Assembly: GCA_036679605.1 (NCBI GenBank)
Contig: JAZDCZ010000419.1
Span: 192,001-256,000 of the forward strand
Direction: 5' to 3'
Length of the DNA: 64,000 nucleotides
Source: Gemmatimonadota bacterium
Lineage (GTDB): Bacteria; Gemmatimonadota; Gemmatimonadetes; Gemmatimonadales; GWC2-71-9
Shown: positions 7,434 to 40,692 of the stretch, piece after piece
Numbering within the stretch: position 1 is the first letter of the stretch
Layout: the number at the start of each line of letters is the position of its first letter
The notes under the pieces: model-generated
The model's database searches: none
Seen by the model: the letters and a program-made list of their open reading frames with translations, nothing else
Told to the model about the DNA's origin: nothing
Made by a program: the position numbers and the translations under genes

Positions 7434-7910
7434 TCAACCTACCTGACTATCATCGATGGCGTCGATGATCGAGCTAAACAACTTGGCCTTGTCTGTGAGT
7501 TCACCTGTCGCCGGATCGGACTTGATATACCATTGACACATCTCACCCATTGCCATGGCATCATCATCGGTCATGCCTACCAGAAACACGTCCCCGTCCT
7601 CCCGCGCGCCGTTGACCGCGTTGGTCAGATTCTGCGGCATCTCTGGAGTTTTCCGTAGAACCTCTACCATCGCACTCGTCATGCGGACCTCCACACGCAA
7701 CCTCCCTATCGAGTCATCGCATTCCCTCTGCCGGCTTGAATTGTACCCACTACACACGGTTACCGGCAGTCGCGGGTACTTTGAGAATCGAGAGTCCCTC
7801 TGTGACATCTTGCAGAGTCGGAAGGCCGAACCCTTGCCGCTAGTTATCAAGCGACTGTGCAAACAGTCTGCACAGAGTCCAACGGAGGGCTTCGTATCCG
7901 AACTTGGCAC
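7434..7910 (-). CDS. Hypothetical; Cys-rich N-terminal domain in frame with a separately initiable 86-aa protein (GTG 7694)
   Basis: CADC..C..C then GGGAGG RBS 6 nt before in-frame GTG 7694. Confidence 0.55.
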   Translation of the reverse strand: MPSSDTKPSVGLCADCLHSRLITSGKGSAFRLCKMSQRDSRFSKYPRLPVTVCSGYNSSRQRECDDSIGRLRVEVRMTSAMVEVLRKTPEMPQNLTNAVNGAREDGDVFLVGMTDDDAMAMGEMCQWYIKSDPATGELTDKAKLFSSIIDAIDDSQVG

Positions 7911-8721: not shown

Positions 8722-11137
8722 CGGAGACTCATTCCGCGTAATTGGCCGCGCACAACGCAAGGTCGACGCGACGGACAAGGTGATGGGTCGGACGATGTTC
8801 GTCGACGATCTTACGTTACCGCGAATGTTATTCGCTCGGTTGCTGCGCAGTCCGCATCCCCATGCGAAGATCTTGCAAATCGATACCTCCAGGGCAGAGA
8901 ACCTGGACGGCGTGAGACGGGTGCTGATCGGCAAGGAGCTGCCGATTCCTTTCGGGATACTGCCAGTCAGTGAGGATGAACATGCGTTAGCACTGAACAA
9001 GGTTCGCTTCATTGGAGATCCCGTTGCAGCAGTAGCCGCTGTCACGGAAGAAATTGCTACTGCGGCATCGGAGTTGATCGATGTCGAATACGAGATTCTC
9101 GATCACATCGCCTCAGCACAGCAGGCGGTCAAGACTTCAGAACCATTGATCCATGAATACGGCGACAACGGTAACCTCCACAAGGTGGTCGACCTGGAGT
9201 TCGGCGACGTGGGCGAAGGATTCGCCGCCGCTGATCTGGTGCGCGAGGACATCTTCTTCTACGAGGGCAGCACCCACCTCTCGTTAGAACAGCACGCTGC
9301 GTTGGCAAATTGGTCTCCCGACGGAAAACTCACGCTGTGGAGTTCGACGCAGACACCGCACTACGTTCACCGCGCTCTCGCCAAGGTACTGGAACTACCG
9401 GCTGCCCGCATCAGAGTGATAGCATGTCCCAACGGCGGTGGCTTCGGCGGGAAGAGCGATCCGTTCAGTCATGAAATCGCCGTCGCCAAGCTCGCAATGC
9501 TGACGGGCAGGCCCGTCAAGGTCACACTCACCCGAGAAGAGGTCTTCTACTGTCATCGTGGCCGTCACCCAACCCTCATGTGGGTCAAGACCGGCGTTAC
9601 AAACGATGGTGCCATCAAAGCGATGCACTTCAAGAGCTTGCTGGACGGCGGTGGCTATGGTTCATACGGTGTGGCAAGCACCTACTACACGGGTGCGTTG
9701 CAGACGGTTACCTACAACGTGGAGCGCTACAAATTTCAGGGAGCGCGGGCTTTCACCAACAAGCCGCCGTGTGGCCCCAAGCGCGGACACGGTACTCCGC
9801 AGCCACGTTTTGCGCTCGAGGTGCAGCTCGACAAGATCGCTGAGGATCTAGGACTCGATCCCGCCGAATTACGACTCAACCATCTTGTACCGCCGGACTC
9901 CCTAACGGCTAATTATCTGCGTGTAGGAACAATGGGGCTGGGCGCGTGCATTCGTAAGGTCACTGCCGCAGCCGGTTGGAAGAAGAAGTACGGCAAGCTT
10001 CCGCATGGCAGCGGAGTGGGGGTGGCGTGCTCCAGCTACATCTGCGGCGCCGGCCTACCGATCTACTGGAATAACATGTCGCAGTCCGGTGTACAGCTTA
10101 AACTCGACCGGAGTGGCGGAGTCACCGTGTTTTGTGGTTCCACAGATATCGGCCAGGGTTCCGATTCTGTCCTCGCATACATTGTCGCCGAAGTGTTGGG
10201 ACTCGATCCCCAAGAACTTCAGATCGTAACAGCCGACACAGACCTCACACCGGTGGACCTCGGTAGTTACTCCAGTCGCGTCACATTGATGAGCGGCAAC
10301 GCGGCACTCCAGGCGGCCGAGCGAGCGCGGGATATCTTGGCCGAACATGCAGCAGCAAAGCTGAATGTGCCCGTGTCCCGTTTGGTATTCGCGGACGGCC
10401 GCGTATTTGACGCACAGAACACCGAAACTGGTATGAGCTTCGCAGAATCGGTACAGTTCGCCGAAACCGCACAGGGCATTGTCGGTACGGTGGGATCATA
10501 CAAACCTCCCAGGAGCACCGGTCGTTATCGTGGGGCGGGGGTAGGGCCATCACCGGCATATTCGTACAGTGCAGCCGTTGCAAGTGTAGAGGTAGATCCT
10601 ACCAGCGGAATCTTCACGGTTCCTAAGATCTGGATCGCCCACGATATCGGACGCTGTATCAATCCGGCCGCGGTGATCGGACAAGTAGAGGGCGGTGTCT
10701 ACATGGGATTGGGCGAAGCCTTGATGGAGGAGATGGCGTATCGCGGCAAACGCAAGGTCGTCCACAAGATCCCCAGCATGTTGGAATACAAGAGTCCTAC
10801 TACGCTCGAGATGTGCGACGTCGAGACCTACTTGATCGAAGATCCCGATCCCAACGGACCGTTCGGTGCCAAGGAAGTGGGCCAGGGCCCCTTGTTACCG
10901 ATTATGCCCGCCGTGGCAAACGCCGTATACGATGCAGTGGGCGTTCGCATAGACGAGGTGCCCATCACTCCCGAGAAAGTATTGCGCGCACTAGGACTCA
11001 AGGCAAAGGGTGAGGAAGCGCGCGTCGGTCCGAGAGCGTTTCCCGAGATCGCATGGCCTAGGCCCACGCGCGTCGTGCCGCCGTGGGAGGGTGGCGACGG
11101 CAAGGCAACAGAGGCGGCCGAGGAGCGGCAGAACTGA
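8708..11137 (+). CDS. Molybdopterin-binding subunit, 4-hydroxybenzoyl-CoA reductase alpha-like
   Basis: GGGFGGK, RGHG, DIGQG, GSYSSRVT, GPFGAKE motifs; likely ATG 8708. Confidence 0.9.
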   Translation: MAKDNGDSFRVIGRAQRKVDATDKVMGRTMFVDDLTLPRMLFARLLRSPHPHAKILQIDTSRAENLDGVRRVLIGKELPIPFGILPVSEDEHALALNKVRFIGDPVAAVAAVTEEIATAASELIDVEYEILDHIASAQQAVKTSEPLIHEYGDNGNLHKVVDLEFGDVGEGFAAADLVREDIFFYEGSTHLSLEQHAALANWSPDGKLTLWSSTQTPHYVHRALAKVLELPAARIRVIACPNGGGFGGKSDPFSHEIAVAKLAMLTGRPVKVTLTREEVFYCHRGRHPTLMWVKTGVTNDGAIKAMHFKSLLDGGGYGSYGVASTYYTGALQTVTYNVERYKFQGARAFTNKPPCGPKRGHGTPQPRFALEVQLDKIAEDLGLDPAELRLNHLVPPDSLTANYLRVGTMGLGACIRKVTAAAGWKKKYGKLPHGSGVGVACSSYICGAGLPIYWNNMSQSGVQLKLDRSGGVTVFCGSTDIGQGSDSVLAYIVAEVLGLDPQELQIVTADTDLTPVDLGSYSSRVTLMSGNAALQAAERARDILAEHAAAKLNVPVSRLVFADGRVFDAQNTETGMSFAESVQFAETAQGIVGTVGSYKPPRSTGRYRGAGVGPSPAYSYSAAVASVEVDPTSGIFTVPKIWIAHDIGRCINPAAVIGQVEGGVYMGLGEALMEEMAYRGKRKVVHKIPSMLEYKSPTTLEMCDVETYLIEDPDPNGPFGAKEVGQGPLLPIMPAVANAVYDAVGVRIDEVPITPEKVLRALGLKAKGEEARVGPRAFPEIAWPRPTRVVPPWEGGDGKATEAAEERQN

Positions 11138-11140
11138 TTC

Positions 11141-12151
11141 ATGTTACGGTTACCTGAATTCACCTACTTCGAGCCCGAGACGATCGAGCAGGCATTACAA
11201 ATGAAATCGGATGCGGGACCGAGCGGCATGTACGTAGCCGGCGGGACCGATCTATATCCGAACATGAAAAGAAGGCATCAGGAGCCCCGAACGGTCATCT
11301 CTTTGGGACGGATAGAGGGGTTGCGTCATGTTCGAGAATGGGGAGTAGGGAGTTCGGGAAACGGAAAGCAAAAAACGAAAAGCGCCGTCGGAGCGATGGT
11401 TACGCTCACCGAGCTTGCCTCCAATGCAGTCATCCGAAATAACTACCCAGTAGTAGCCCGGGCGGCGAAGCTGATAAGTACTCCGTTGCTTCGCAACATG
11501 GGAACATTGGGTGGGAACCTGTGTCTCGATACGCGTTGCAACTATTACAATCAGAGTTACGAGTGGCGCAAGGCGATCGACTTCTGTATGAAGAAAGACG
11601 GTGACATCTGTTGGGTGGCGCCCAAGAGCCCGCGATGTTGGGCCGTGCAATCGTCCGACATAGCTCCAATTGCCGTGGCACTCGGCGCGGAATTGTCGCT
11701 CGTCGGACCGAGTGGTGAGCGCGTGGTTTCAGCAGCCAAGTTTTACAAAGACGACGGCATCGAATATCTCACTAAGCGTTCCGACGAGATCTTGACCGAG
11801 ATGCGCCTTCCAACCCCCAATGGCTGGAACGCCACCTATTGGAAATTGAGACGCAGAGGGTCATTTGACTTTCCGGTTTTGGGTGTGGCAGTTTGGATTG
11901 AGTGGCACGGCGACGTGGTGGCGGACGCCCGCATAGTGCTGGGTGCCGTGGCCAGCCATCCGCACGATTTGGCTGCTGCTGCACAACTCATTATTGGCAC
12001 GCGGCTGGAGGATGGTGCCATTGCTGCCGCAGCGGCCGCCGCATTCAAGCCGTCAAAGCCGATGGACAACACCGACTTCGGGTTGGCGTGGCGCAAGGCA
12101 ATGACGCGAAACTATGTAAACGGGGCGTTGAGGGAGTTAAGAGAAAAATAG
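11141..12151 (+). CDS. FAD subunit with [4Fe-4S] insert (HcrB-like)
   Basis: AGGTDL, RNMGTLGGN, C-X15-C-X7-C-X8-C insert. Confidence 0.9.
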   Translation: MLRLPEFTYFEPETIEQALQMKSDAGPSGMYVAGGTDLYPNMKRRHQEPRTVISLGRIEGLRHVREWGVGSSGNGKQKTKSAVGAMVTLTELASNAVIRNNYPVVARAAKLISTPLLRNMGTLGGNLCLDTRCNYYNQSYEWRKAIDFCMKKDGDICWVAPKSPRCWAVQSSDIAPIAVALGAELSLVGPSGERVVSAAKFYKDDGIEYLTKRSDEILTEMRLPTPNGWNATYWKLRRRGSFDFPVLGVAVWIEWHGDVVADARIVLGAVASHPHDLAAAAQLIIGTRLEDGAIAAAAAAAFKPSKPMDNTDFGLAWRKAMTRNYVNGALRELREK

Positions 12152-27066: not shown

Positions 27067-27611
27067 CACGCCTCCTCGCCGAGCATCGTTCTCAACCGCG
27101 CATGAGCACGCGAAAGTTGCGATTTCGAGAAACTCACTGTTTTCCCCATTAGCTCGGCTATCTCCTCGTGTGTGTAGCCCTCTACGTCGTGCAACCACAC
27201 CACCGCCCTGCTCGTGTCCGACAGACACTTCAATGCGTCCTCCAGATCGAGCCGGAGGCCGGATTGTCCCTCCAGCGACCATCTCCCAGCAAACTCCTCG
27301 TGCAGTTCCTCAGTATTCCGGTACTTCTCATACCTCACACGCATCAGTGCTTTGCTGGCAGCTATGCGCTTGATCCATGATGTCATGCTCCCGGCCTGGT
27401 CACCACGGAATTTTTTTATGCTGCGGCAGACCTCCAGGAAAGTTTCCTGAAGCACATCTTCCGCATCTTCCGCGGTGCGGCATATTCTCCGAGCCATTGT
27501 GTAGACCAGACCCTGATAGCTCCGATACAAGCCTTCGAGAGCTGCAAGGTCGCCGGTCTTGGCCCGGCGAATCGCCATGTCGTCGACTGCAACCAAGGAC
27601 ATTTGCGTCAT
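27066..27611 (-). CDS. ECF RNA polymerase sigma factor
   Basis: DAEDVLQETF, WIKRIA, LHDVEGYTHEEIA. Confidence 0.92.
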   Translation of the reverse strand: MTQMSLVAVDDMAIRRAKTGDLAALEGLYRSYQGLVYTMARRICRTAEDAEDVLQETFLEVCRSIKKFRGDQAGSMTSWIKRIAASKALMRVRYEKYRNTEELHEEFAGRWSLEGQSGLRLDLEDALKCLSDTSRAVVWLHDVEGYTHEEIAELMGKTVSFSKSQLSRAHARLRTMLGEEA

Positions 27612-27755: not shown

Positions 27756-28868
27756 TTGAAGAGAACGGACGCAAGCGACCTTTGGCGTCACCACCTCCAG
27801 GATGAGGCCGACGCCGCGTTCCTATACCGAATTCTGGCTGACGCGGAACCCACCGACAAGAGGAGTGATCTGTACCGTCGTCTGGCCGATGTCGAGGACC
27901 GGCATTCAAAGCTCTGGTGCGAGGTTCTGGAACAACATGGCCATGAGGCGCCCGTGCCAGGTCCCTCGTTCAGAGCGAGGCTGCTCGCCAAGATAGCAAC
28001 AATGTTCGGTCCCACTCTGCTGCTACCACTGCTGCTGAGAGAAGAAGGTCTCGAGGTTAAGGGATACCTCGACATGTACCGACAAAGTGAACCCGGCACT
28101 GCGCGCGACACCGCTCTCACCTTGGCAAAGGAATCAGCCGAACATGCGACGGCGCTGGGCCAGCTTTCAGATGCGGTGGGTGAGCCGTGGCACAGCACTG
28201 GGTCGGGTGGTTTTCTCCGCAACGTCATCTATGGGTTCAATGACGGGTTGACGGCTAACTTCGGCTTGGTTGCGGGTGTTATCGGAGCGGCGTTCGAGTC
28301 TCACATCGTGCTCGTGTCGGGCTTGGCAGGAATGATTGCGGATGCTCTATCGATGGGTTCCTCGGGATACTTGGCTGCGAAAACCGAACGCGAGGTTTAT
28401 GCAAACGAGATCGCGATGGAGCGCGAAGAGATTCGGCTCATGCCCGAACTCGAGGAAGAGGAACTTGCACTGCTGTACGAGGCCAAGGGTGTCGAGACCC
28501 AGCGCGCCCACGAGATGGCACACGACATTATGCGAGACCCTGAGCGCGCGCTAGCCGAAAAGGTGCGCGAAGAACTCAAAATAGGTGATGCACACACTAC
28601 ACCTGTCAACGAAGGTCTCATTACCGGTATCGCTACTGCGGTTGGAGCGTTCATACCCTTCGCTCCGTTTCTCTTCATGGAGGGTCAGGCCGCAGCGCTC
28701 ACTGCTTTCTTGCTTGCGATGACCTCGCACTTTGCCGTGGGTGCGGCAAGGAGTTTCTTCACCGGGCGCGGACTATTCAAGAGCGGCTTAGATATGTTTG
28801 TGGTCGGACTCGGCGTTGCCGTGGTGGGCTACCTGGTTGGTGACCTTGTCGCCAAGGCGTTGACCTGA
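27756..28868 (+). CDS. Rubrerythrin-like + VIT1/CCC1 iron/manganese transporter
   Basis: ExxH motifs N-terminal; RNVIYGFNDGL, ADALSMG; start approximate (27726 or 27756). Confidence 0.88.
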   Translation: MKRTDASDLWRHHLQDEADAAFLYRILADAEPTDKRSDLYRRLADVEDRHSKLWCEVLEQHGHEAPVPGPSFRARLLAKIATMFGPTLLLPLLLREEGLEVKGYLDMYRQSEPGTARDTALTLAKESAEHATALGQLSDAVGEPWHSTGSGGFLRNVIYGFNDGLTANFGLVAGVIGAAFESHIVLVSGLAGMIADALSMGSSGYLAAKTEREVYANEIAMEREEIRLMPELEEEELALLYEAKGVETQRAHEMAHDIMRDPERALAEKVREELKIGDAHTTPVNEGLITGIATAVGAFIPFAPFLFMEGQAAALTAFLLAMTSHFAVGAARSFFTGRGLFKSGLDMFVVGLGVAVVGYLVGDLVAKALT

Positions 28869-28952
28869 CTAGACCACGAGATTAACCAACCGGTCCTGAA
28901 CGTAAATCGATTTTTTCACGTCGCGACCATCCAAGGACCGGCGCACCGCATC
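28869..28952 (-). pseudogene. leuS: Displaced 3' end of leuS (84 nt, att-like direct repeat)
   Basis: 72/84 nt identical to 38248-38331; encodes DAVRRSLDGRDVKKSIYVQDRLVNLVV* vs DAVLRALDGREVRKSIYVQDRLVNLVV*. Confidence 0.9.
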
Positions 28953-28989
28953 GTGCAGTCGATCCGAAGATTGGGTTCGCTTGGTACGG

Positions 28990-29085
28990 TCACTGGAAGC
29001 AGAAGCCGAACTCAGTAACAGTATATGTGTATTGGTCACTTGCCGTACTTTCACCATCGTTTACTTCAACCTTTATCTCGGGCAC
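28990..29085 (-). pseudogene. Orphan C-terminal fragment of an Ig/PKD-like domain
   Basis: EIKVEVNDGESTASDQYTYTVTEFGFCFQ* resembles the LRLNVLDSGGADGFDQLSATVNSQAPPCLN* tail at 31782-31943. Confidence 0.4.
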
Positions 29086-29137
29086 CGCGGCCATCATGGT
29101 CCTGTCGCTGTGCAGAACGGCGGGTAGTGCGACGGCG

Positions 29138-30394
29138 TTAACCAGTGGGATCCACCACTTTCCCGATAAAGAGAATGGTCCCCGAAATCCGCTCGCGCAG
29201 CACGAAGAGGAACGGCTGGTCGATGACGAACGGCGGCGGCTCACTGATCATGCCGAAGCTGACGGACGTCACCGCCGCCGCTTCCGTGCCCACCTCGTCC
29301 ACCTTGACAAACGTCTTGTGTTGGACCGTACGGATGAAGAGCCCAGCGCCGGGAGTGATGTTGCTGAAGTCTGCCAGCGCTGCGTCGAATGCAATCCCCA
29401 TCCCCAGCGCCGAGAGCACGTCGTTCATTGTGATCTTGTACTCGAACTGGAACTTGGGCATCACCACGATCTTGTTTGCGCTGTCGACCTCGAGCCCGGC
29501 GGTCCACGCCTGCCAGCGATCGCGATCGAACGCGGCGATCACTTCGTCTAGCGTGACACCCGCTGCTGGCACCGCCGCCACCATCGTGAACGCCCCACCG
29601 CCGTACGGCATCTCGATCACGTTCGCCAGTTGGTCGCCGCTGATCCGAACGGGTACCGGGTCCGCATGCGACATGGTGGGGACCGACCTCTCCGTGCCAT
29701 CTCTTAACGTGAACGGCCGGTCGCTGGTGAGCGACTTGTCGAACTGGTTGGTCCAGTCACCCTTGAAGAACACGGCGTTGATCACGAACAGCATGGTTGA
29801 GCGATCGATGGGCCTCGGCGCGATCGAATCGATCCGTCCGTTGGTGTGATCCCTTACCCATCCATCGATAATGTCGGGCGCGTTGGGGGCGCCGAAATCC
29901 AGGGCCTCCACCTGAGCATCGAAAAAGGTGGTGGCCGCGTCCAAGAAGGTGGGGAGCACGGGGGCCTCGGGCCGATGCCATATGGAGTTGGCGAGATTGA
30001 ACGTCACCCGGCGATCCAGATTGACCAACAGGTCGATCAAGCCGCGGTAGCCGTCATTGACCTGGTCGATGGCAAGCCCCTCGAATCCCAAGGTCTTGGC
30101 CATCGAGTCTCTCGTCGCTCCGGCGGCGCCATTGTACGTCATGCCGAGCGCCATGCTCACGCTCAACGGCGAGATAAAGAGGTTTTCGTCGGGATTGGCC
30201 TGGGCATCCACCGCGCGGAACAGACGCATGGCGAAGGAATTGTCGGACTCCACCAACGCCAGCTCCGCCGCGGTCAGCTCCCGGGGCAACACTTCGATGG
30301 GTCCCATGGGTCCTAAGGAGTTGCCACCACCACCGCAGGCAACGGCGAAACCGATGACGGGCACGAACGCGATACGTTTACAGACACGCTTCAT
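29138..30394 (-). CDS. Serpin, lipoprotein
   Basis: Lipobox AVAC; NLFISPLS, NAVFFKGDW, hinge EVGTEAAAVT, FVIDQPFLF..ILFIG. Confidence 0.95.
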   Translation of the reverse strand: MKRVCKRIAFVPVIGFAVACGGGGNSLGPMGPIEVLPRELTAAELALVESDNSFAMRLFRAVDAQANPDENLFISPLSVSMALGMTYNGAAGATRDSMAKTLGFEGLAIDQVNDGYRGLIDLLVNLDRRVTFNLANSIWHRPEAPVLPTFLDAATTFFDAQVEALDFGAPNAPDIIDGWVRDHTNGRIDSIAPRPIDRSTMLFVINAVFFKGDWTNQFDKSLTSDRPFTLRDGTERSVPTMSHADPVPVRISGDQLANVIEMPYGGGAFTMVAAVPAAGVTLDEVIAAFDRDRWQAWTAGLEVDSANKIVVMPKFQFEYKITMNDVLSALGMGIAFDAALADFSNITPGAGLFIRTVQHKTFVKVDEVGTEAAAVTSVSFGMISEPPPFVIDQPFLFVLRERISGTILFIGKVVDPTG

Positions 30395-30457
30395 GATTGG
30401 GTACCTCCGTTATCAAGACAATACACACAGTCACGTAGACCTGTCGCGGTTGGCCGG

Positions 30458-31618
30458 CTATGGTGGCGTCACGGCCCACAGCCCCGCGCGGGTCCCGACG
30501 AGCAGCCGACCGTGGGCCGCATCGACCGCCGTCGCCGTCCCCGTCGCGCCCAAGGCCCCCCGGGGCACGGCGAGCGAGTCCCAACTCGCGCCGCCATTCG
30601 TCGTCCGGTACCACCCCAGGTCCGTCAGTTCCCGGAAGGTGCCGTCGGGATTCTTTTCGAATTCAAGGAACACGGTGGCCGCATAGAGCACATCGTTGAG
30701 CTCGGCGAAACCCGCCACCGCACCACGCGGACCCGCGGCACAGTCCCACGAGCCCCTTGCACCCGCCTCGTCAGATTGCATCAGCCCTAACTCGGCCCCG
30801 AGGAACAGTCGGTCTGGCACGTTGGGGGCCAGGGCGAGTGCGTTGGTCGGCGTCTCGACGACCACGCTGTTGCATGTGGGAACTCCTGCGTCCCAGGTCT
30901 CGCCCCAGTCTGTGCTAAAAACGACAAACGGAACGAAGATGTTGCCCTGCCCCGCCACCCAGAGCAGGCCTGTGCGCGCCGGATCGATCAGGATGTCCAC
31001 GTGCCACGCGCAAATGTTGAAGCTTCCGAACACGAACTGCCACGTCTCTCCGGCATCGAGCGAGCGCAGCACGCCGTGGCAGTTGCTCATGAACACCCGC
31101 TGCGCGTTGCCGGGGTCGACCTCCAGGTCGTCAACGAAGACGCGGTACGGGTTGCGGGACTCCGTCGCCAGCCCCCCGTCAAACGGCACCCACGACTCCC
31201 CCCGGTCGAAGCTGGCGAAGACCGCGGCGCTCGTTGTGTCTTCCTTGGAGCCGTTGCGAAACGTCACGCCCGCGAGGAGGCGCGGCGGGTCGGCCGGAAC
31301 ATAGAGCAGCGCCTTCGGGATGAGGTGGTTGTGCCAGGCTTGCGGACCCAGCGCCGTCCACCCGCCGTCCGACTCGAGCCGGAAGATCCCGTGGTCGTTC
31401 GTGCCCGCGAACAGTCCCCAGGGCGTTACGGCGACCTCGGCTATCCACTCCGACTCGAGCCCCAGCAACGTCCAGCAGCCGCTGTCGAGTTCCAGCGGGC
31501 ATACCTGCGAAGAAGATAGGCTATCCGAGCAGGCGGCGAACATGCCCGCCACAGAAACGACGACGACGGAGCGAACCAGCCAATCCGCCACACGGCCGGA
31601 AATGTGTTGCCGTGCCAT
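30458..31618 (-). CDS. Asp-box (BNR) beta-propeller lipoprotein
   Basis: AAGGAG RBS; lipobox FAAC; SFDRGESW, SLDAGETW, STDWGETW, TTNGGASW. Confidence 0.8.
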   Translation of the reverse strand: MARQHISGRVADWLVRSVVVVSVAGMFAACSDSLSSSQVCPLELDSGCWTLLGLESEWIAEVAVTPWGLFAGTNDHGIFRLESDGGWTALGPQAWHNHLIPKALLYVPADPPRLLAGVTFRNGSKEDTTSAAVFASFDRGESWVPFDGGLATESRNPYRVFVDDLEVDPGNAQRVFMSNCHGVLRSLDAGETWQFVFGSFNICAWHVDILIDPARTGLLWVAGQGNIFVPFVVFSTDWGETWDAGVPTCNSVVVETPTNALALAPNVPDRLFLGAELGLMQSDEAGARGSWDCAAGPRGAVAGFAELNDVLYAATVFLEFEKNPDGTFRELTDLGWYRTTNGGASWDSLAVPRGALGATGTATAVDAAHGRLLVGTRAGLWAVTPP

Positions 31619-31781
31619 ATGAGCGCTCCTTTGATGTTTAAGGATTACCGAAGCCTCACCCGCGACGGCCCGCCACCGTGCCGCCGGGGTCAACCGCCCG
31701 CACACGAACGCACCTCCTCTGTTTGAACTAACCCCATGCCCGATGGAAAGTTGCAGGGGTCCGGCGGCACCGCGGGCCGGT

Positions 31782-33489
31782 TCAGTTCAGACACGGCGGG
31801 GCCTGAGAGTTGACGGTAGCAGACAACTGATCGAACCCGTCGGCACCACCGCTATCCAACACGTTGAGCCTCAAGGTGTAACGCGACAGATCTCCCGTCC
31901 AGACGGTGACGTAACTGTCGCTCCCTATCGGAACGCCATTCCTGCCACTGATATGAGTACATTCCCGTGCCACCAGATACCGCCGAGTCATAGAAGCAGT
32001 ATTCATCCGGTGGGACCATCGTGGAACCAAAGATCGTAACATTCAGGGAAGGGGGTGGCGGGGGGTCCGGGACGCCAACGGCGCGCGCCGCGTCGAGCAC
32101 ACCGTGGCCGAGGTAATCGTCCCGCCCGCCCGCGCCCAGACCATCCGCGGTGTTGAACAGCCGATCCACGATCTGCTGATTCGTCCAGGTTGGATTCTGC
32201 TCTCGAAGCAGGGCGGCCGCGCCCGAAACGTGCGGTGTCGCCATCGAGGTGCCGCACCAACCCGAGGTTTCGTCCTCGTAGCTGTTATTGCCGACCGTGC
32301 TCAGGGCCCAAAACGGCGCCGCAAGGTCCACGTAAACGCCCTTGTTCGAAGCGACCGTTTGGGATGGATCGTTTGGATATGTGCAGGGACTGCTGCCGGC
32401 GAAGCTGCCGTCGGTTTTCACTCCCGAGACGCCGATGACATTCGTGTACTCGGCAGGGTAAAAGTTGGTGGGAGATGACTGGGCGCTGCCCCTGTTTCCG
32501 GCTGCCGCCACGAGCACGACCCCGTCGCTCCACGCCTGGGCGACAGCATTCGCCATCCCGGCGTCGAAAACAGTACCCCCCAGGCTCATGCTCAGCACAT
32601 CGAAAAAAACGCTCGCCTGGATACCAGAGATAATGTCAGTGGTGGGGCACCCGAACTGAATCGGTCCAGAAAAACAGGCGCCGTAAACGAAGACGTCGGA
32701 GGGCGCAACCCCGGGCGCGGCGCCTACCGCTCCGATGCTGTTGTTGCGCGCGGTGAAGATGCCTAGAACGTGGGAGCCGTGCCAGAACGGACCGTCATCG
32801 CAGCCGCCCTCGTTTCCCGCGCAATTGGCGAGTGGCACAAGCGGAAGGTCCTGGTGGCCCCGGTCGTGCCCGGTGTCGATGATCTGAATCTTGGCGGTGG
32901 CACCGGTCGCGCTGTCCCACGCCTCTGGGGCGCGCACGAGATCCATGCCCCATGGTATCGTCTGACCGTTCAGCGATGCCCTCCCGAACGCCTTGATAGG
33001 CGCCTCCACGCCCTGCACAGACAACCGCTGGAGCGGTTCGATATAGTCCACCAGCGGATGGTCGCGCAGAAGCGTAGCCGTCCCAGCCGGCAACAGAACG
33101 TGCGCAGCCCCCATGAACCAGTAGAACTCAATGACCGTGACGCCCCGCTGGGCCAGGACCGCAAGGGCAGCGTCGATCGTGCCCCGGGGAATCGCCTCGC
33201 GCCGCCCGGTCTCGAGCGCACGCGGTGAGGCCGGGGTTTTGAACGCGATCACGGCATGGCCGTCTTCCTCGGCGATCGCCTGCTCCAGTGCGACCGCACT
33301 GGTGTCCCAGGGGCGGGGCTCGGGTGGCAGGTCGATCGTGACGGCCGGGACATCCTGTACCTGAGCTGCTGGCATGCCGGAGAGTCGTGCCGCTACGTCG
33401 CTGTCCGCAATAGGCGGATTCGGCAGATCGGAACATGCCGTCAGTACACTGAGCGCCATGAGCGTGGCGCAGGCGGAACTCCTTACCAT
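31782..33489 (-). CDS. S8 subtilisin-like lipoprotein protease with frameshifted C-terminal Ig/PKD-like domain (as sequenced, ORF stops at 31852)
   Basis: GGAGG RBS, lipobox LTAC, IDTG, HGSHV, AAAGN, GTSMATPHV, poly-Pro linker; frame change at ~31944. Confidence 0.9.
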
Positions 33490-33570
33490 AGTACACCTCC
33501 TTGTGATGAAAGGCACCCGAATCGCCATAATGCTCGGTCAGATGGGCGACGACGATTCTCATGCCTAGCA

Positions 33571-33601
33571 TACAGGGGTCCTGAACACGCCAAAGGTTAC
33601 A
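33571..33601 (-). promoter_or_regulatory. Island ECF promoter motif, copy in front of the S8 gene
   Basis: TGTAACCTTT-ggcgtgttcagga-CCCCTGTA on minus strand. Confidence 0.8.
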
Positions 33602-33792
33602 CGCCAAATACGATCACTTTTGCACACACGACTCAAGTTGTTGCTTTGCAGCAAGTTACGTGTCATGTTCGCGAACTCGAATAGCTCCTCGGCCACGGAA
33701 CGGTCAGCTGAACGCCCGCTCGAGATCGAAGAGACCAGGAACCTGGCCGGCGGCTCACAATCGCACCGCGCACCATCAACTGGATCTTCGCA

Positions 33793-33823
33793 TGTAACCT
33801 TTGCCGTGTTGAACGCCCCTGTA
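33793..33823 (+). promoter_or_regulatory. Island ECF promoter motif, copy in front of the peptide gene
   Basis: TGTAACCTTT-gccgtgttgaacg-CCCCTGTA. Confidence 0.8.
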
Positions 33824-33870
33824 CTGAAGACAGGTGGTTGACGAGAGGCACTCAACACGGAGGATTCCTC

Positions 33871-34089
33871 ATGCAAGTTCCACTACGTAGACTGATACTT
33901 GTCGCTGGTGCCGCGGTCGCTCTGACGGCCATACCCTTGGCGGTCACAGAGTCTGAAAACCGGGTCTCGCTCGGTGTCAGTGACGCATGCGCTCAGGGTG
34001 GTTTCTGCTGTCGCCACGAACAGGGTTCGCTGTGCCCCAGTAGCATACCGGACGGGCAGCCCAAGGGTGACTACACGCCTTGTGGCTAG
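33871..34089 (+). CDS. Small secreted Cys-rich peptide (72 aa)
   Basis: GGAGG RBS; hydrophobic leader; C-terminal DACAQGGFCCRHEQGSLC..TPCG; own promoter motif. Confidence 0.8.
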   Translation: MQVPLRRLILVAGAAVALTAIPLAVTESENRVSLGVSDACAQGGFCCRHEQGSLCPSSIPDGQPKGDYTPCG

Positions 34090-34149
34090 TTAGCTACACT
34101 GATCCGACGTTGAGTTCGGGTACGATAAAAGCTGAGTATCACCAATCGC

Positions 34150-35265
34150 ATGGGGGCAGTTTTCATGCAATGTAGGTGCACTCTCCGCCGGGTCGGTCTC
34201 GCGTGGAGCCTTTCATTGTTAGCGCTGCTCACCCATGCGTGCGGCAGCGAGTCAACCAGCGGGCTACGGTACGGACCGGCTGAACTCGATCACGCGGCCG
34301 TTGGGGTCATTGATGTGAAGAGTAGGACCCTCTTCGAGTCGGACACCCTCGCGCTTCCCTCTGACATAGCGCTCGTAGGCGACAACGTGGTCGTCATAGA
34401 CAATGCCAACGAACCCGCCCTATTCGTTGTAGACAGAACGAGTGGAGAACTGCTGCGTGCGATCGGGAGGCGTGGAGACGGCCCTGGCGAGTTCCGGCAG
34501 CCCTGGACTCTCGACGCTGTTTCGGGTAGCACATCGGAGGTGTGGGTCTACGACTTGGGATTGGGTAGGCTCACAAAGTTGGATGTAACCACCTCTGAGG
34601 ACGCCGCAAGCAGCCGGATCGTTAACCTTGGGAGCAACGGCGCTACAACGGGTCCGATATGGACCGATGCCAACACGATCGTGAGCCTGGGACTCTTTGC
34701 GACCGGACGCCTGGCCGTGTTCAACGTGGACGGCGAGCGGACGGGCACCTTTGGAGTCGTCCCGCTCGGCCCGTCGACGGTCCCGGCAACGGTGAAGCAG
34801 CACGCCTATCAGGCAACACTGGTTCCACATCCCGAGCGACACCTAATGGCAGCGGTCACGAGACACGCCGGCCGCATCGAGTTATATCGGTCCGACGGCT
34901 CGACCGTCGCCATGCTCGACGGCCCGCTGCCCTTCGAGCCCCGCTACACCGTTGGTTCGAATGCGCGCGCAGCGGTGCTGCGAACCGGAGACGACCTGCG
35001 ATTTGGTTATATCGACGGAGCGGGCTCTAACAAATACATCTTCGCACTGTTCTCCGGCAGGACACGGGAGGGATTCCCCGGGCGTGCAAACTTCGCTAGG
35101 TTCGTACACGTATTCGATTGGAAAGGAACCTTCCAGAAAGCGCTGCGCCTGGACCACGACGTGCTGAGCATCGCCATAGACAGGGGGTCAACGACTCTGT
35201 ACGCCGTTACGCACGATCCGACACCGGCAATACTGAGCTACTCGTTATCCATGTTCGTACCGTAG
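34150..35265 (+). CDS. 6-bladed beta-propeller lipoprotein (BF3164/TolB-like)
   Basis: Lipobox THAC; IGRRGDGPGEF; YIFALFSG; VHVFDWKG. Confidence 0.8.
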   Translation: MGAVFMQCRCTLRRVGLAWSLSLLALLTHACGSESTSGLRYGPAELDHAAVGVIDVKSRTLFESDTLALPSDIALVGDNVVVIDNANEPALFVVDRTSGELLRAIGRRGDGPGEFRQPWTLDAVSGSTSEVWVYDLGLGRLTKLDVTTSEDAASSRIVNLGSNGATTGPIWTDANTIVSLGLFATGRLAVFNVDGERTGTFGVVPLGPSTVPATVKQHAYQATLVPHPERHLMAAVTRHAGRIELYRSDGSTVAMLDGPLPFEPRYTVGSNARAAVLRTGDDLRFGYIDGAGSNKYIFALFSGRTREGFPGRANFARFVHVFDWKGTFQKALRLDHDVLSIAIDRGSTTLYAVTHDPTPAILSYSLSMFVP

Positions 35266-35290
35266 GGTTTTCTGGGTACATGCAGCTCGT

Positions 35291-37453
35291 TTAGGAACCG
35301 TCGTCTGCCACATTCACAGCGGTAGGCGCGGTTAGAGCCTCGAGCACGCGCACGATTTCGTCCAAAGAGTTCTCGGACAGCCGTATGCGACTCGACTTGT
35401 CCAGCACCAGGTAAAGCGGTGTCTCCCACAGACCGAGCGCGTCGCGTGCCTTCCCATCCACATGAAAGACTCTCGGTGCGGACGGGTGCTCCTGAACGAA
35501 ACGGTTGAGAGCTAGGGACTGTGACTCCGCCGTTAATATCAACACGCGAACGCCGCGCGGTTCATAACGGGCAGTGACTTGCTGTAAGCGCGGCAGTTCA
35601 CTCAGACACGGGGCGCACAACCAGGACCAGAACGCCACGAGCGTAACTTGGCCACCCGTGAGTTCGTCAAGTCGATGACTGGCACCCGCCGAGTCGGTCA
35701 ACTCCACACCACCACGCACAAAGGTGTTACTCGTGCCGCCGAGAACGCGCTCGTACATCTCGTCTCGTGCGACCCTTGTCAGCTCTGTCCATCGAGCGCC
35801 GTTCACGAGGCCGGTCGCCAGCGCCGCAAGCGAATCCCGGGCAGTAGTCGTGGTATTCGGGTCGACCGCCAGTCTGGCCAACATGCCAACCGCACCGGCC
35901 GTATCGGCAATGCCGAGCCTTACCTCGGCCGATACTCCAAAGACCTCCGTATCCCATCCGGTCGCCGCCGCCTGGTCCAGAGCGTCGAGACCGGCCTCGG
36001 TATCGCCCAACTGCACGAGCGCCCTACCTAGCGGTGCGAGGACTCGGCCACCCTCCGCCTCGTCGTAGCGCCGCTGCTCGCCGATGGTGCGAGTCAGAGG
36101 CCGTCTCCAACCGGCATCGGTGTCAGTGCGTGCCAGCTCATCACGCAGCCGCTCTACAGCGACCCTTCTCAATTCCGGCAGCTCGGCCAGTTGCTTCGCT
36201 ACGGCAAGTGCCGCCCACGGTTTCAGCGCCACGCGGCGGTCGGCCCATCGCAGTATCGCGTCTGGGTCTCCCGCCCGCAGTGCCACAGAAAGTCCCATCC
36301 GAGGCAGTTGAAAGGAGACTGCGCCAACTTCTTGCCACAGACCCTCCAGTTCCCGCAGCGCTCCATCGCGATCGCTCCCATGCGCCGCGATGATCCGAAA
36401 GACACGTTGTTGCACTGCCTGAGGATGGCCCGGTGCTTCAGTTAGCAGCCGATCGCGCCAATAATCGACCCTCCCCGGATCTTGCTCTGCGATGAATCCC
36501 AGCCAGTATAGTCCCGCCAACGTGTCGCCGCTAAGCGAAATGTCATTGGCAAACCGGCTATGCAACTCCTCATAGCGCGCGCTCCAACGTCCGGAGAAAT
36601 CGGTCATGCCGCGCGATCGGGATAAACTTTTCTCAAACCCCGCTAGTCGCGACCAGGCATCGGGATCGTCGGGATATACCTCGGTGGCCCGCCTCGCAGC
36701 TTCCAGACCTCCTTGCCAGTTTCGTCCGCTCAAATCGTTTTGTTGCTGCACCAACGCCCGATAATCCGGCTCGTCGCCATTGAAGACCAGAAGCTCCCAC
36801 AACGCACCACGGTTGCTGTCAACGCGCGCACCCAGCGTATCCTCCACCGCGAATACCGCGTACACCACCGAGTCGGGAAGCTGAACGCTGCCCTCGAATC
36901 TCCTGCGTCCGACTTTCTCCAGTTGAGCCACCACAATCTGTCGGGCGCCGGGATCGTACTCCCGATCGGCAGCCGTCCTGTAGCGAGCGCGGAGTACCAG
37001 GCGAGCTTCGCCCGCGAGCATCGAGGTACTGCGGTACTCCACAGCAATCAGATCGCCGCGCTCGGGCTTCTCGGGTGTCAAGATCAACTCTCCCGACACC
37101 CGCTCGGCCCCCAAGTCCGGAAGCGAGCGAACCAGGAGAGCGCCTGCGCCCACCAGGGCAACCAGCGCGGCGGCTATCATGCCCAGTCGTTTGGGCAGCG
37201 CCGGAAACGGGTCGGACAGCGGCAAAATCACCCGCTCCCCGGCCGCGCGTCTCGCCAGCACGCGTTGCAGGATTGCGGCAGGCGGTTTCTGTGTTGGAAT
37301 TGATCGGGCCTGCTCATCCAGAGCCTGAATCGATGCCACCGTGTTGCGGCACGGCAGGCAAGCGGCCAAATGCTCGGCTACCCGACTACGTCTCTTGGTG
37401 GATAATTCGCCGTCGACGAAACCATGCAGTTCTGAACGAGAGAGGTGTCTCAT
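35291..37453 (-). CDS. zf-HC2 anti-sigma fused to TPR-like region and TlpA-type thioredoxin domain
   Basis: MRHLSRSELHGFVDGEL..HLAACLPC, TM, helical repeats, C-terminal FWSWLCAPCLSELP..ETPLYLVLD. Confidence 0.8.
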   Translation of the reverse strand: MRHLSRSELHGFVDGELSTKRRSRVAEHLAACLPCRNTVASIQALDEQARSIPTQKPPAAILQRVLARRAAGERVILPLSDPFPALPKRLGMIAAALVALVGAGALLVRSLPDLGAERVSGELILTPEKPERGDLIAVEYRSTSMLAGEARLVLRARYRTAADREYDPGARQIVVAQLEKVGRRRFEGSVQLPDSVVYAVFAVEDTLGARVDSNRGALWELLVFNGDEPDYRALVQQQNDLSGRNWQGGLEAARRATEVYPDDPDAWSRLAGFEKSLSRSRGMTDFSGRWSARYEELHSRFANDISLSGDTLAGLYWLGFIAEQDPGRVDYWRDRLLTEAPGHPQAVQQRVFRIIAAHGSDRDGALRELEGLWQEVGAVSFQLPRMGLSVALRAGDPDAILRWADRRVALKPWAALAVAKQLAELPELRRVAVERLRDELARTDTDAGWRRPLTRTIGEQRRYDEAEGGRVLAPLGRALVQLGDTEAGLDALDQAAATGWDTEVFGVSAEVRLGIADTAGAVGMLARLAVDPNTTTTARDSLAALATGLVNGARWTELTRVARDEMYERVLGGTSNTFVRGGVELTDSAGASHRLDELTGGQVTLVAFWSWLCAPCLSELPRLQQVTARYEPRGVRVLILTAESQSLALNRFVQEHPSAPRVFHVDGKARDALGLWETPLYLVLDKSSRIRLSENSLDEIVRVLEALTAPTAVNVADDGS

Positions 37454-37458
37454 CACCA

Positions 37459-38013
37459 CTAGTCTCCTATGATCCTTCGGAGCATGTCTTTGGCGCGGTA
37501 CAGCCTGACCTTGGACGTTCCGGTGGTTATACCAACCATTCTTGCGATCTCCGAATGTGCATAGCCTCCGATCACCCTCATCACAAAGACAATACGCAGG
37601 GATTCCGGAAGATTCGCGATTGCTTCCTCGATCATCATGCGGTCCACGTGCCCCGGAGGCTCCTCTGCGGTTTCGCTCGGCGAGAGAACTTCCAGAGGAA
37701 CCTCGGCTCGCCGCTTTGACGAGCGATTTCTCCGATACGCGGTTCTGAATGCCACCGTCTTGATCCACCCTTCCAGACTGCCATGTCCTTTGTATCCGTG
37801 CAAAGCCTCCGCCAGGTCCATGAACACATCTTGAACGACATCCATGGCGTCTTCGTGCGATTTCGTCAGTCGCACCGCTATACCAAAAACCATTGCTCCA
37901 AACCGCTCAAACAGCTCCGCGATGGCCTCCGGCTCGCCCGACCGCGCCCGGCTCAGGAAAGCGGGTGATTCGAACCGGTCGTTCGCGTCGGTCACCGACA
38001 GCGACGCCCCCAT
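37459..38013 (-). CDS. ECF RNA polymerase sigma factor (island)
   Basis: DAMDVVQDVF, WIKTVA, GYAHSEIA, SKVRLYRA. Confidence 0.92.
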   Translation of the reverse strand: MGASLSVTDANDRFESPAFLSRARSGEPEAIAELFERFGAMVFGIAVRLTKSHEDAMDVVQDVFMDLAEALHGYKGHGSLEGWIKTVAFRTAYRRNRSSKRRAEVPLEVLSPSETAEEPPGHVDRMMIEEAIANLPESLRIVFVMRVIGGYAHSEIARMVGITTGTSKVRLYRAKDMLRRIIGD

Positions 38014-38035
38014 GGAGGCAACGCGGGCCCTATAC

Positions 38036-38066
38036 TACAGGGGCCACGAAGGAGCAAAAGGTTACA
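38036..38066 (-). promoter_or_regulatory. Island ECF promoter motif, autoregulatory copy
   Basis: TGTAACCTTT-tgctccttcgtgg-CCCCTGTA, 22 bp upstream of the sigma ATG. Confidence 0.8.
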
Positions 38067-38247
38067 TGACGTCAATTTCATCGACCGGCTAGAATACGCA
38101 TAAGTCCCCTGTCTTCAAGTCTTTAGCCGCATTGTACCGGCGATCGGCGATCGACAGAACCAACGCCATTTCGTATGCGACTATCAGATTGGGACAGGTT
38201 GAGATTTCCGGCTCCCTCTGGCGAGAAAACCGCTGGCTACTCTAGTA

Positions 38248-40692
38248 CTAGACTACGAGATTAACCAACCGATCTTGCACGTAGATCGATTTTCTTACTT
38301 CCCGACCATCCAATGCCCGGAGCACCGCATCATCTTCCAAAGCGAACTCGAGCACCTGGTTCTCGGGTAGTCCACGTGTTACGTGAAGTCGAGACCTAAC
38401 CTTACCGTTAACCTGAACCACCACCACCACATCCTCCGCATCGGCAAGCGCGGCGTCAGATACAGGCCATTTTGCGTCGAACACGCTGTCGTCATGCCCC
38501 AAGCGCTCCCAGGATTCCTCAGAGAAATGTGGAGCAAACGGTGCCAACATCACGATCAGCGGTTCCACCATATCGCGATCTACAGAAGCATCGGAATTGT
38601 CTTTCGCACCGCTAACGTCACGCAGCAAATTCAGGTATTCCATGAGGCCGGCGATCGCGGTGTTGTAGCGCAACTCCTCTGTTGCATCCGTCACCTTGCG
38701 GATCGTTTGATGCAATTTCTGTAGCGCTCGACCACTCTTCGCCTCGGGACGTGGCGAGGCCTGCGACACCAAGCCCCATACTTTGTCCAGAAAGCGACGC
38801 ATTCCCGAAATTCCGTCGTCTCTGAAATCGCCGCCTTCCAAGTAGGGTCCGAGGAACATCAGGTACATCCGGAACGTGTCCGCTCCCCATTTCGACAGAT
38901 AATCATCAGGGATGACGGTGTTGCCGCGGGATTTCGACATCTTGGCCCCATCCTTAACGATGGTTCCGTGGGCCCGAAATTTAGGGAATGGTTCTTCGAA
39001 CGTTATGTGTCCGAGATCGTGCAGCGCCATCGTTATGAATCGCGAGTACATGAGATGGAGCACCGCGTGTTCGTTACCACCTATATACGATTGTACGGGC
39101 AGCCATTTTTTCGTCAACTCCGTGTCGAATGGCCGATCCCGAAATTCCGTCGACGGATACCGCAAGAAATACCAAGAGCTATCGAGAAACGTGTCCGAAA
39201 CGTCGGTTTCGCGCGTGGCTTCTTCTCCACAACTAGGACACGGTACCTTGTACCACTCTTCGTGCCGCGCAAGTGGTGATTCGCCCGTCTCGTCGGGTTT
39301 GAAATCTTCGATCAACGGTAGCAGCACTGGAAGTTCTGAGTCGGGAACCGGTACCGTACCACATTCCTTGCAATAGATTACCGGAATGGGCGGTCCCCAG
39401 TAACGCTGCCGTGAGATGCACCAGTCGTGTAGCCTATACTGAATCTTAGCCTTGCCAAGTTGCTTTTCCTCCAGCCACTCGCTGACTGATTTCACGGCCT
39501 CGCTACATGCCATTCCATCGAACCGTCCACTATTCACGATCGTGCCGTCCCAGCCACTGAAGGGAAGGTCCGTGGGTTCCTTAGGCTCTACAACCTGCCT
39601 TATCTCCAGGCCAAAGCCCTTGGCAAATTCGTAGTCGCGTTCGTCATGTGCCGGCACTGCCATGATGGCGCCCGTTCCGTACTCCATTAGCACATAGTCC
39701 GCGATCCATATCGGAACGGATTCACCTGTCGCCGGATTCCTGGCGTACGTGCCCGTAAAAACCCCGGTCTTGATCTTGTCCCCAACCCTTCGCGACACCA
39801 GGTCTTTCTGTATTGCGCTTCGGCGGTATTCGTTGACTTCTCTCTGCTGCTCTGCCGCCGTCACCACGTCCACCATCGAATGCTCCGGTGCAAGAACTAG
39901 GTATGTAGCACCAAACACCGTATCCGGCCGAGTCGTATAGACCCGGATCGGCGTTCCGGATGGAGTCTCGAACACAAGTTCAGCACCTTCGGAGCGTCCA
40001 ATCCAGTTCTGTTGCATCCTCCGGGTCGACTCGGACCAATCGAGCCTGCTGAGACTGTCTAGCAGGCGCTGCGCGTACTTGGTAATGGTGAAGAACCATT
40101 GATCGAGCATGCGCTGATGTACACGCGTTTCCAAATGACGCTCACAATATCCGTCAATCACCTGTTCGTTGGCCAGCACGGTTTTGCACTCCGGACACCA
40201 GTTGACCGGCGCTTTTTTCTTCACCGCCAAGCCGGCTTTGAAAAGCTGCAGAAAGATCCACTGTGTCCAGCAATAGTACTCGGGATCAGTGGTGGTCAGC
40301 TCATGGTCCCAGTCGAACATGAGACCCATTCGCTTCAACTGCTGCCGGAACCGTGAGATGTTGTCCGGTATCAGTTTGTTGGGGTGAGTGTTCACCTTCA
40401 GGGCGAAATTCTCCGAGTGAATCCCGAAGGCATCGAATCCTATCGGCTCGAACACATCCCACCCTTGAAGCCGCTTGAACCGGCCGTGGATGTCCACACC
40501 TACAAACGCAAAGACATTGCCAACGTGAAGTCCCTCCGCCGATGGGTAGGGAAACATCATGAGGTTGTAGTATGGCCGCTCGGCTTTACGTAGGTCTACC
40601 GAATGCGTGCGGTGCTCCTCCCACCGACCGCGCCATTTCTCCTCAACGGCCTGGGGGTCGTAGTCAGCTGTCAATTCTTCCCTATCGGACAT
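38248..40692 (-). CDS. leuS: Leucine--tRNA ligase
   Basis: MFPYPS..LHVGN (HIGH), TTRPDT editing domain, SRQRYWG, KMSKS, VQVNGKVR. Confidence 0.98.
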   Translation of the reverse strand: MSDREELTADYDPQAVEEKWRGRWEEHRTHSVDLRKAERPYYNLMMFPYPSAEGLHVGNVFAFVGVDIHGRFKRLQGWDVFEPIGFDAFGIHSENFALKVNTHPNKLIPDNISRFRQQLKRMGLMFDWDHELTTTDPEYYCWTQWIFLQLFKAGLAVKKKAPVNWCPECKTVLANEQVIDGYCERHLETRVHQRMLDQWFFTITKYAQRLLDSLSRLDWSESTRRMQQNWIGRSEGAELVFETPSGTPIRVYTTRPDTVFGATYLVLAPEHSMVDVVTAAEQQREVNEYRRSAIQKDLVSRRVGDKIKTGVFTGTYARNPATGESVPIWIADYVLMEYGTGAIMAVPAHDERDYEFAKGFGLEIRQVVEPKEPTDLPFSGWDGTIVNSGRFDGMACSEAVKSVSEWLEEKQLGKAKIQYRLHDWCISRQRYWGPPIPVIYCKECGTVPVPDSELPVLLPLIEDFKPDETGESPLARHEEWYKVPCPSCGEEATRETDVSDTFLDSSWYFLRYPSTEFRDRPFDTELTKKWLPVQSYIGGNEHAVLHLMYSRFITMALHDLGHITFEEPFPKFRAHGTIVKDGAKMSKSRGNTVIPDDYLSKWGADTFRMYLMFLGPYLEGGDFRDDGISGMRRFLDKVWGLVSQASPRPEAKSGRALQKLHQTIRKVTDATEELRYNTAIAGLMEYLNLLRDVSGAKDNSDASVDRDMVEPLIVMLAPFAPHFSEESWERLGHDDSVFDAKWPVSDAALADAEDVVVVVQVNGKVRSRLHVTRGLPENQVLEFALEDDAVLRALDGREVRKSIYVQDRLVNLVV

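Follow-up and report, generated by a model that had tools for sequence, protein, structure and literature searches.

A predicted three-promoter regulon of a probably autoregulated ECF sigma factor on a genomic island of a Gemmatimonadota bacterium

A 64,000-nt stretch of a Gemmatimonadota genome (the window; C357:192001-256000 of the assembly G000, which comprises 6.72 Mb in 434 contigs) has been analyzed with respect to a 31-bp motif with 18 fixed bases, TGTAACCTTT-N13-CCCCTGTA, that occurs three times in a small genomic island. The three copies are probably promoters read by the same island's own sigma factor of the extracytoplasmic function (ECF) type (37459-38013), with a probability of about 0.8. 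This had been proposed in a first-pass annotation of the sequence, and the proposal is supported by the geometry of the sites, by the presence of a related motif in 20 of 22 orthologous loci, by -10 boxes specific to each module of the family, by the rarity of the motif and by a promoter scan of the window, in which no correctly oriented sigma-70-like promoter was found to serve the island genes. What we infer is that the sigma factor binds these motifs, where transcription starts, how far each operon reaches and which signal acts. In its workings the system is like a textbook case of an ECF sigma factor that regulates itself and a small local regulon, an ordinary type of regulation of which it is a new and tidy example.

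The motif was located at 33571-33601 (minus strand), 33793-33823 (plus strand) and 38036-38066 (minus strand), with 0 mismatches in each copy, and no fourth site was detected in the window by a pattern scan allowing up to 3 mismatches. The chance expectation in the window is a mean of 0.01 matches, and none of 100 dinucleotide shuffles gave three. The 18 box positions are identical in the three copies, the 13-nt spacers are different and the flanks are unrelated. Each copy is oriented into a gene start located 22-81 nt downstream. The end of copy 1 (33571-33601) is 81 nt from the ATG at 33489 of a gene encoding a peptidase of family S8, or 42 nt from the first in-frame ATG at 33528; copy 2 (33793-33823) ends 47 nt before the ATG at 33871 of a small secreted peptide gene, and from the end of copy 3 (38036-38066) it is 22 nt to the sigma ATG at 38013. 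Copies 1 and 2 form a divergent pair, 191 bp apart. The first-pass annotation had described three identical, identically spaced copies pointing into gene starts, two of them forming a divergent pair about 190 bp apart, with no further copy in the window, and all these points were borne out.

A scan of the whole assembly yielded 3 sites without a mismatch, all in the window, 6 with two mismatches and 1 with three, whereas the reversed-sequence control gave 0, 0 and 4 sites, respectively. The exact motif, for which the same annotation had suggested a genome-wide scan, is therefore restricted to the three island sites in 6.72 Mb. All 7 variant sites are on contigs with sister modules of the island system (C212, C294 and C422, see below). 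Sites with 4 mismatches, 13 observed versus 33 in the control, are noise. A relaxed family pattern gave 21 matches genome-wide (control, 10), of which 15 were on module contigs, so the motif is not a general promoter. The pattern was also looked for in 40 further genomes from the family and order, and one of them contained it, G001, which belongs to the same genus. Matches to a degenerate pattern in metagenomes (at least 119 stretches) were rated as chance or unrelated promoters and set aside; no relative of an island protein was found in the 80 loci examined, three of which contained distant ECF sigmas only (26-30% identity).

Alignment to promoters of the group ECF16 gave a layout consisting of a -35 box TGTAAC(C), a 16-nt spacer and a -10 box (G/A)CCCC at motif positions 23-27. 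The predicted promoter of the sigma/anti-sigma operon (38036-38066, minus strand), which would be autoregulatory, has its -35 TGTAAC at 38066-38061 and its -10 GCCCC at 38044-38040. In the predicted promoter of the peptide-propeller operon (33793-33823, plus strand), with equivalents in C422 and C294, positions 33793-33798 form the -35 and 33815-33819 the -10 GCCCC; in that of the unit formed by the S8, BNR and serpin genes (33571-33601, minus strand) the corresponding boxes occupy 33601-33596 (-35) and 33579-33575 (-10 ACCCC). Across the family motif, positions 1-5, 8-9 and 23-27 have a high information content and positions 28-31 a low one. Since CTGTA is weakly conserved and positions 23-27 are conserved, the -10 box is taken to be GCCCC, with an unusual all-C core, and not CTGTA or CCCCTGTA. 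With the -10 at these positions, transcription would be expected to start about 1-5 nt downstream of the motif, and the earlier expectation of starts about 6-8 nt downstream of CCCCTGTA has been revised. The AAC of the upstream element had been considered to fit an ECF -35 box, and this holds, as the same (T/C)GTAAC is found in ECF16 promoters with mapped starts.

The island sigma factor (184 aa, 37459-38013, minus strand) contains sigma2 and sigma4 domains only (PF04542, residues 34-102; PF08281, residues 126-177) and reaches 83.9 bits with TIGR02937, for which the cut-off is 42.9; by its domains it is an ECF (group 4) sigma-70 factor. No NCBIfam equivalog cut-off was reached. A predicted -35 with AAC lies upstream of the sigma gene, as is typical of autoregulated ECF sigma factors, and 20 of the 22 orthologous loci have the related motif, with TGTAA(C/G), in this place. 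The anti-sigma factor (720 aa, 35291-37453, minus strand; identified by Pfam/NCBIfam and translation) has the features of a cognate ECF anti-sigma, its start abutting the sigma stop codon and its N-terminus matching zf-HC2 (PF13490). This N-terminal ZAS domain carries the signature H-x3-C-x2-C, invariant in 4/4 paralogues, and is followed by one hydrophobic, transmembrane (TM) segment recognized by eye, a TPR region in the periplasm and, at the C-terminus, a thioredoxin-fold domain (AhpC/TSA, redoxin) with a CAPC sequence. The anti-sigmas of the window, C422 and C294 retain the CxxC of this fold (around residue 613 of the window protein), and only its first Cys is present in C13 and, by eye, in the locus L017. 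As it is partly lost in these two, oxidoreductase activity may not be family-wide.

The anti-sigma alignment included 28 loci, all from Gemmatimonadota metagenome-assembled genomes (MAGs); 24 of them hold the sigma gene and 22 have upstream DNA. L039 and L040, which lack upstream DNA, and L035, L041, L043 and L044, which begin inside the anti-sigma gene, were left out of the promoter comparison. In 20/22 loci, TGTAA(C/G)NTT-N13(14)-(G/A)C(A/G)T(C/T) was found no more than 40 nt ahead of the start predicted for the sigma gene, and in the remaining two, L021 and L025, GCATCT is kept and the -35 has diverged. A regular expression for the family gave 31 matches in the 28 loci versus 4 in the reversed control. 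From this comparison, the exact window motif appears as one lineage-specific version of a wider family motif. The only credible additional copies found with a position weight matrix (PWM) were the divergent ones in L028 and L031, which face a propeller gene, and L029:12531; a match at L017:11333 is inside an open reading frame (ORF). In L017, from a Gemmatimonadaceae MAG, the sigma and anti-sigma genes are succeeded on the same strand by those of the peptide, the propeller and another propeller-like protein (9200-11762), in an apparent operon extending from sigma to the propeller genes.

Covariation between sigma and promoter has been considered in 24 pairs. In the recognition helix of region 4.2, the residue that follows the conserved Ser tracks the sixth base of the -35 box, being K or R in 12/12 pairs with TGTAAC and E or A in 12/12 pairs with TGTAAG. 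A maximum-likelihood sigma tree requires about 3 switches (bootstrap range 3-4), and the covariation is regarded as supportive evidence, not proof. In the same tree, the window, C422 and C294 sigmas form one clade with that of L029, where the promoter still has CATC.

Three further sigma/anti-sigma pairs of the family are present in the assembly, on contigs C422, C294 and C13. Identity to the window module is 64% (sigma), 86% (anti-sigma), 89% (propeller) and 77% (peptide) for C422, 47%, 45%, 56% and 38% in the same order for C294, and 41% (sigma) and 34% (anti-sigma) for C13, without a propeller or peptide value for the latter. The putative targets in C422 are genes for a DsbA-like protein, a propeller and a CarboxypepD_reg/Plug protein, and those in C294 an S41 protease and a propeller; the C13 pair is surrounded by MacB/FtsX genes. 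These paralogues raise the question of whether the motifs are ECF-type promoters read mainly by another sigma of the family, for example that of C422 or C294, in which case the island sigma would not define the regulon. Sister sigmas with 47-64% identity and very similar promoters do occur in the assembly, and position 4 of the -35 box is tolerant, with both TGTAAC and TGTGAC among the C294 promoters. However, each module has a private -10 box, (G/A)CCCC in the window (3/3), GCCAC in C422 (5/5), GCACC in C294 (4/4) and GCATC in C13, and the exact CCCC version is found in the assembly only on the island that encodes this sigma, so that reading by a paralogue is considered improbable.

The comparison between the window and C422 revealed a mosaic. 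From 33959 to 37257, which includes the mature peptide, the propeller and the periplasmic part of the anti-sigma factor, DNA identity is 82-96% and synonymous divergence (dS) 0.19-0.30. In the sigma gene and the first ~62 anti-sigma codons identity is 61-75%, with dS of 1.25 for sigma and 0.82 for the anti-sigma N-terminus, and in the divergent promoter region and the signal-peptide codons it is 41-57%, with dS of 1.6 for these codons. The ratio of non-synonymous to synonymous divergence (dN/dS) is 0.2-0.4 throughout. Because dS is low in the core and high in the specificity parts, the sensory core appears to be young and the specificity parts old; one gene-conversion tract of ~3.3 kb, or a cassette swap, would explain the mosaic. 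That selection keeping the regulons apart has shaped it is an attractive but unproven idea. Tentatively, the sister modules may sense one periplasmic cue and be insulated from each other by co-varying sigma factors, anti-sigma sigma-binding domains and promoters, with a two-base -10 code (CC, CA, AC versus the ancestral AT) pairing each promoter with its own sigma, although the odds are somewhat against this proposal. If it were true, one signal would have separate outputs, namely the S8/BNR/serpin genes, the DsbA/propeller/TonB-type genes and the S41 protease. The way in which duplicated sigma systems escape cross-talk could be studied in the sister modules as in a natural experiment, and their -10 code is the most interesting aspect of the system. 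Rhodius et al. reportedly described orthogonal ECF sigma/promoter/anti-sigma sets in 2013, and Campagne et al. are said to have dealt in 2014 with -10 recognition by the sigma2 loop. As is reportedly the case in those orthogonal sets, the sister modules differ jointly in their promoter boxes, their sigma and the anti-sigma domain that binds it, whereas the modules described here are natural and recent, with sensory parts still 85-96% identical in DNA.

Decayed pieces of the module were found on C212, and in G001 a 2-kb contig carries a divergent promoter pair of the window type, and a frameshifted sigma relic is preceded by a copy of the C422 type. In C212 (L016, copies at 7263-7293 and 11310-11340) and in G001:C43 (L009, L056), sigma-type promoter copies precede sigma remnants, which are truncated or frameshifted, as well as scattered module genes (thioredoxin-fold, propeller, DsbA-like). 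The modules undergo duplication and decay.

A conserved 34-bp dyad element (33632-33665) is located between the divergent promoters. It is present in 4/4 divergent promoter regions of the genus (window, L013 of C422 at 7567-7600, L014 8170-8203 and L011 432-465), nowhere else in the assembly, and it is kept despite an identity of 41-57% in the DNA around it; its G001 copy forms a perfect inverted repeat of 11 bp about a 3-nt centre. This dyad may be the operator of a dimeric regulator, for which it is a candidate. It was also considered as a sigma-54 promoter and discarded, because none of the copies has the -24 GG of the consensus and one only has kept the -12 TTGC. The dyad indicates that other regulators probably act at the divergent region, and the three motifs could likewise be operators of a DNA-binding protein other than a sigma factor. 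This is very unlikely, since the half-sites of the motif are asymmetric, with a fixed promoter-like spacing of 16 nt, they are always oriented to a gene start, and the motif travels with the sigma gene in 20/22 loci and covaries with the sigma 4.2 residue. Even less credit is given to the motifs being inert leftovers of duplication in a repeat-rich island: the modules are indeed duplicated, rearranged and partly decayed, as in the C212 and G001 relics, and homology between modules extends to the flanks upstream of the sigma copies, but the window copies have only the box positions in common and the boxes are kept between modules despite an intergenic identity of 41-57%.

Several observations weigh against the assignment of the three motifs to the island sigma. 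In the -10 box, GCCCC, there is no CGT or CAT core such as the relatives and most described ECF promoters have, and the sigma ATG has no Shine-Dalgarno sequence. In 18/22 orthologous loci only the sigma-proximal copy was seen (within ±7 kb), so the three-promoter regulon is lineage-specific; PWM matches beyond the training sites in these loci were 7 versus 5 in the control, and L029 has a peptide-propeller pair without a motif copy. G001 has the promoter pair, yet no intact sigma or anti-sigma of the family was found in it. Well-supported branches of the sigma tree force one residue switch only, and the covariation may rest on that one. Finally, the assembly is apparently more than 5% contaminated, as inferred from scan tallies and from its 6.7 Mb versus 2-4.4 Mb in relatives, so the sister modules need not share one cell; leuS is single-copy in the assembly.

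In the proposed mechanism, the membrane-bound ZAS anti-sigma factor would hold the sigma in the resting state, and a periplasmic cue, sensed through the TPR and thioredoxin-fold part, would release it. RNA polymerase with the island sigma would then read the three motifs, the trailing TGTA lying between the -10 box and the start site. Copy 3 would drive the sigma/anti-sigma operon, giving positive autoregulation restrained by the co-made anti-sigma, copy 2 the secreted Cys-rich peptide and the six-bladed propeller lipoprotein, and copy 1 the S8 protease-BNR-serpin unit. For an ECF sigma factor of Gemmatimonadota, this amounts to a clean promoter model that is open to test and to a predicted regulon, complete with its three operons. 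The regulated genes (protease and serpin, Cys-rich peptide and propeller lipoprotein), together with the thioredoxin-fold sensor, point to a function in the envelope or in secreted proteins.

The system has been compared with the published groups by means of excerpts from the corresponding papers. In the excerpts on ECF16, which includes SigF/EcfF of Caulobacter and Bradyrhizobium and BcrS of Brucella melitensis, the EcfF promoter is given as GTAAC(g,a)-N14-15-(c,t)CG(t,a) and its start as lying 6 bp past the -10 box (PMC3420878), and the BcrS promoter as -35 TGTAAC and -10 GCGAAA, its listed sites beginning with TGTAACCTTT (PMC8315932). The mapped ECF16 promoters have the form (T/C)GTAAC-N16/17-GCGAA, with starts determined by primer extension or 5'RACE (PMC3420878, PMC8315932). 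From these descriptions, ECF16 and the island motif have in common the -35 (T/C)GTAAC and the spacing, and ECF16 also presents autoregulation and a divergent target operon with a small peptide, as in the island arrangement. By contrast, the -10 is CGAA in ECF16, GCCCC in the island and GCAT in the relatives of the island; the ECF16 anti-sigma is a six-TM DUF1109 protein, unlike the single-TM (by eye) ZAS protein with TPR and thioredoxin fold of the island; and the ECF16 hosts are proteobacterial, whereas the island system belongs to Gemmatimonadota. The island system thus resembles ECF16 at the -35 and, by its anti-sigma factor and -10 box, is not a member of that group.

In the passages of the ECF Hub supplement consulted (Casas-Pastor et al. 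2021, PMC7826278), a -35 TGTAACCTT or GTAACCTT is predicted for ECF231 and ECF264, and Gemmatimonadetes constitute only a minor share of six groups. As described there, ECF231 has a predicted -35 TGTAACCTT and a less conserved -10, as in the island family, a single-TM anti-sigma at position +1, its zinc finger being cytoplasmic, like that of the island, and MacB/FtsX genes nearby, as around the C13 paralogue. It differs in being found in Bacteroidetes/Solibacterales with periplasmic HEAT repeats and adhesins, whereas the island has TPR and AhpC/TSA domains (Pfam) in a peptide/propeller/protease context. By predicted -35 and anti-sigma type, and compared by description only, ECF231 is the nearest described group. 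No group with a ZAS-TPR-AhpC/TSA anti-sigma or centred on Gemmatimonadetes appears in those passages of the supplement, and a literature search found no paper on an ECF zinc-finger anti-sigma with a periplasmic thioredoxin-like part.

The remaining island genes fall on both sides of the divergent promoters. On the minus strand are those of a subtilase (peptidase S8) lipoprotein (31852-33489; Pfam, NCBIfam), with its likely start at ATG 33489 after an AAGGAGG Shine-Dalgarno, a BNR/Asp-box protein (415 aa, 30458-31705; Pfam/NCBIfam), 146 nt from the S8 gene, and a serpin (418 aa, 29138-30394; PF00079, E 7e-103), 63 nt from the BNR gene. No terminator-like site was found by a terminator scan within these gaps, and the BNR and serpin genes are probably co-transcribed with the S8 gene. 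A subtilase lipoprotein and a serpin, a protease inhibitor, are apparently placed in one transcription unit with a BNR/Asp-box protein (29138-33489), and the subtilase and the serpin may form a protease-inhibitor pair. On the plus strand are the genes of the secreted Cys-rich peptide (72 aa, 33871-34089), with a signal peptide, 5 Cys in its mature part and no Pfam or NCBIfam match, and of a TolB-like 6-bladed beta-propeller lipoprotein (371 aa, 34150-35265; PF15869, PF17170) with a lipobox. Homologues of the peptide adjoin the propeller in C422, C294 and L017, and homologues of the propeller occur in sister-module and orthologous loci. The S8, peptide and sigma gene calls of the first-pass annotation hold, Pfam/NCBIfam and the translations giving an ECF sigma with r2 and r4_2 regions, an S8 peptidase and a small secreted peptide. 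An Rfam search of 28500-38500 gave no match at E values up to 1.

The island that this annotation had assumed is real, as indicated by an empty site in G001, a flanking repeat of ~85 bp and a deviating GC content (0.616 versus 0.574 in the contig). G001 (97% complete, 1% contamination) is collinear with the window up to VIT1 and then continues directly with leuS, the insert being absent; with VIT1 and leuS adjacent there, window 28869-38247 corresponds to a 9.4-kb insertion at the leuS 3' end, bounded by an imperfect direct repeat of ~85 bp. The left copy of this repeat (28868-28950) is a duplicated leuS 3'-end fragment and the right copy (38248-38330) the true leuS 3' end. None of the 7 island ORFs contains a recombinase or integrase domain (Pfam, NCBIfam). 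Just outside the island, beside VIT1, a second, distant ECF sigma is encoded (27075-27566, minus strand), with 32% identity to the island sigma (tblastn) and a counterpart in G001.

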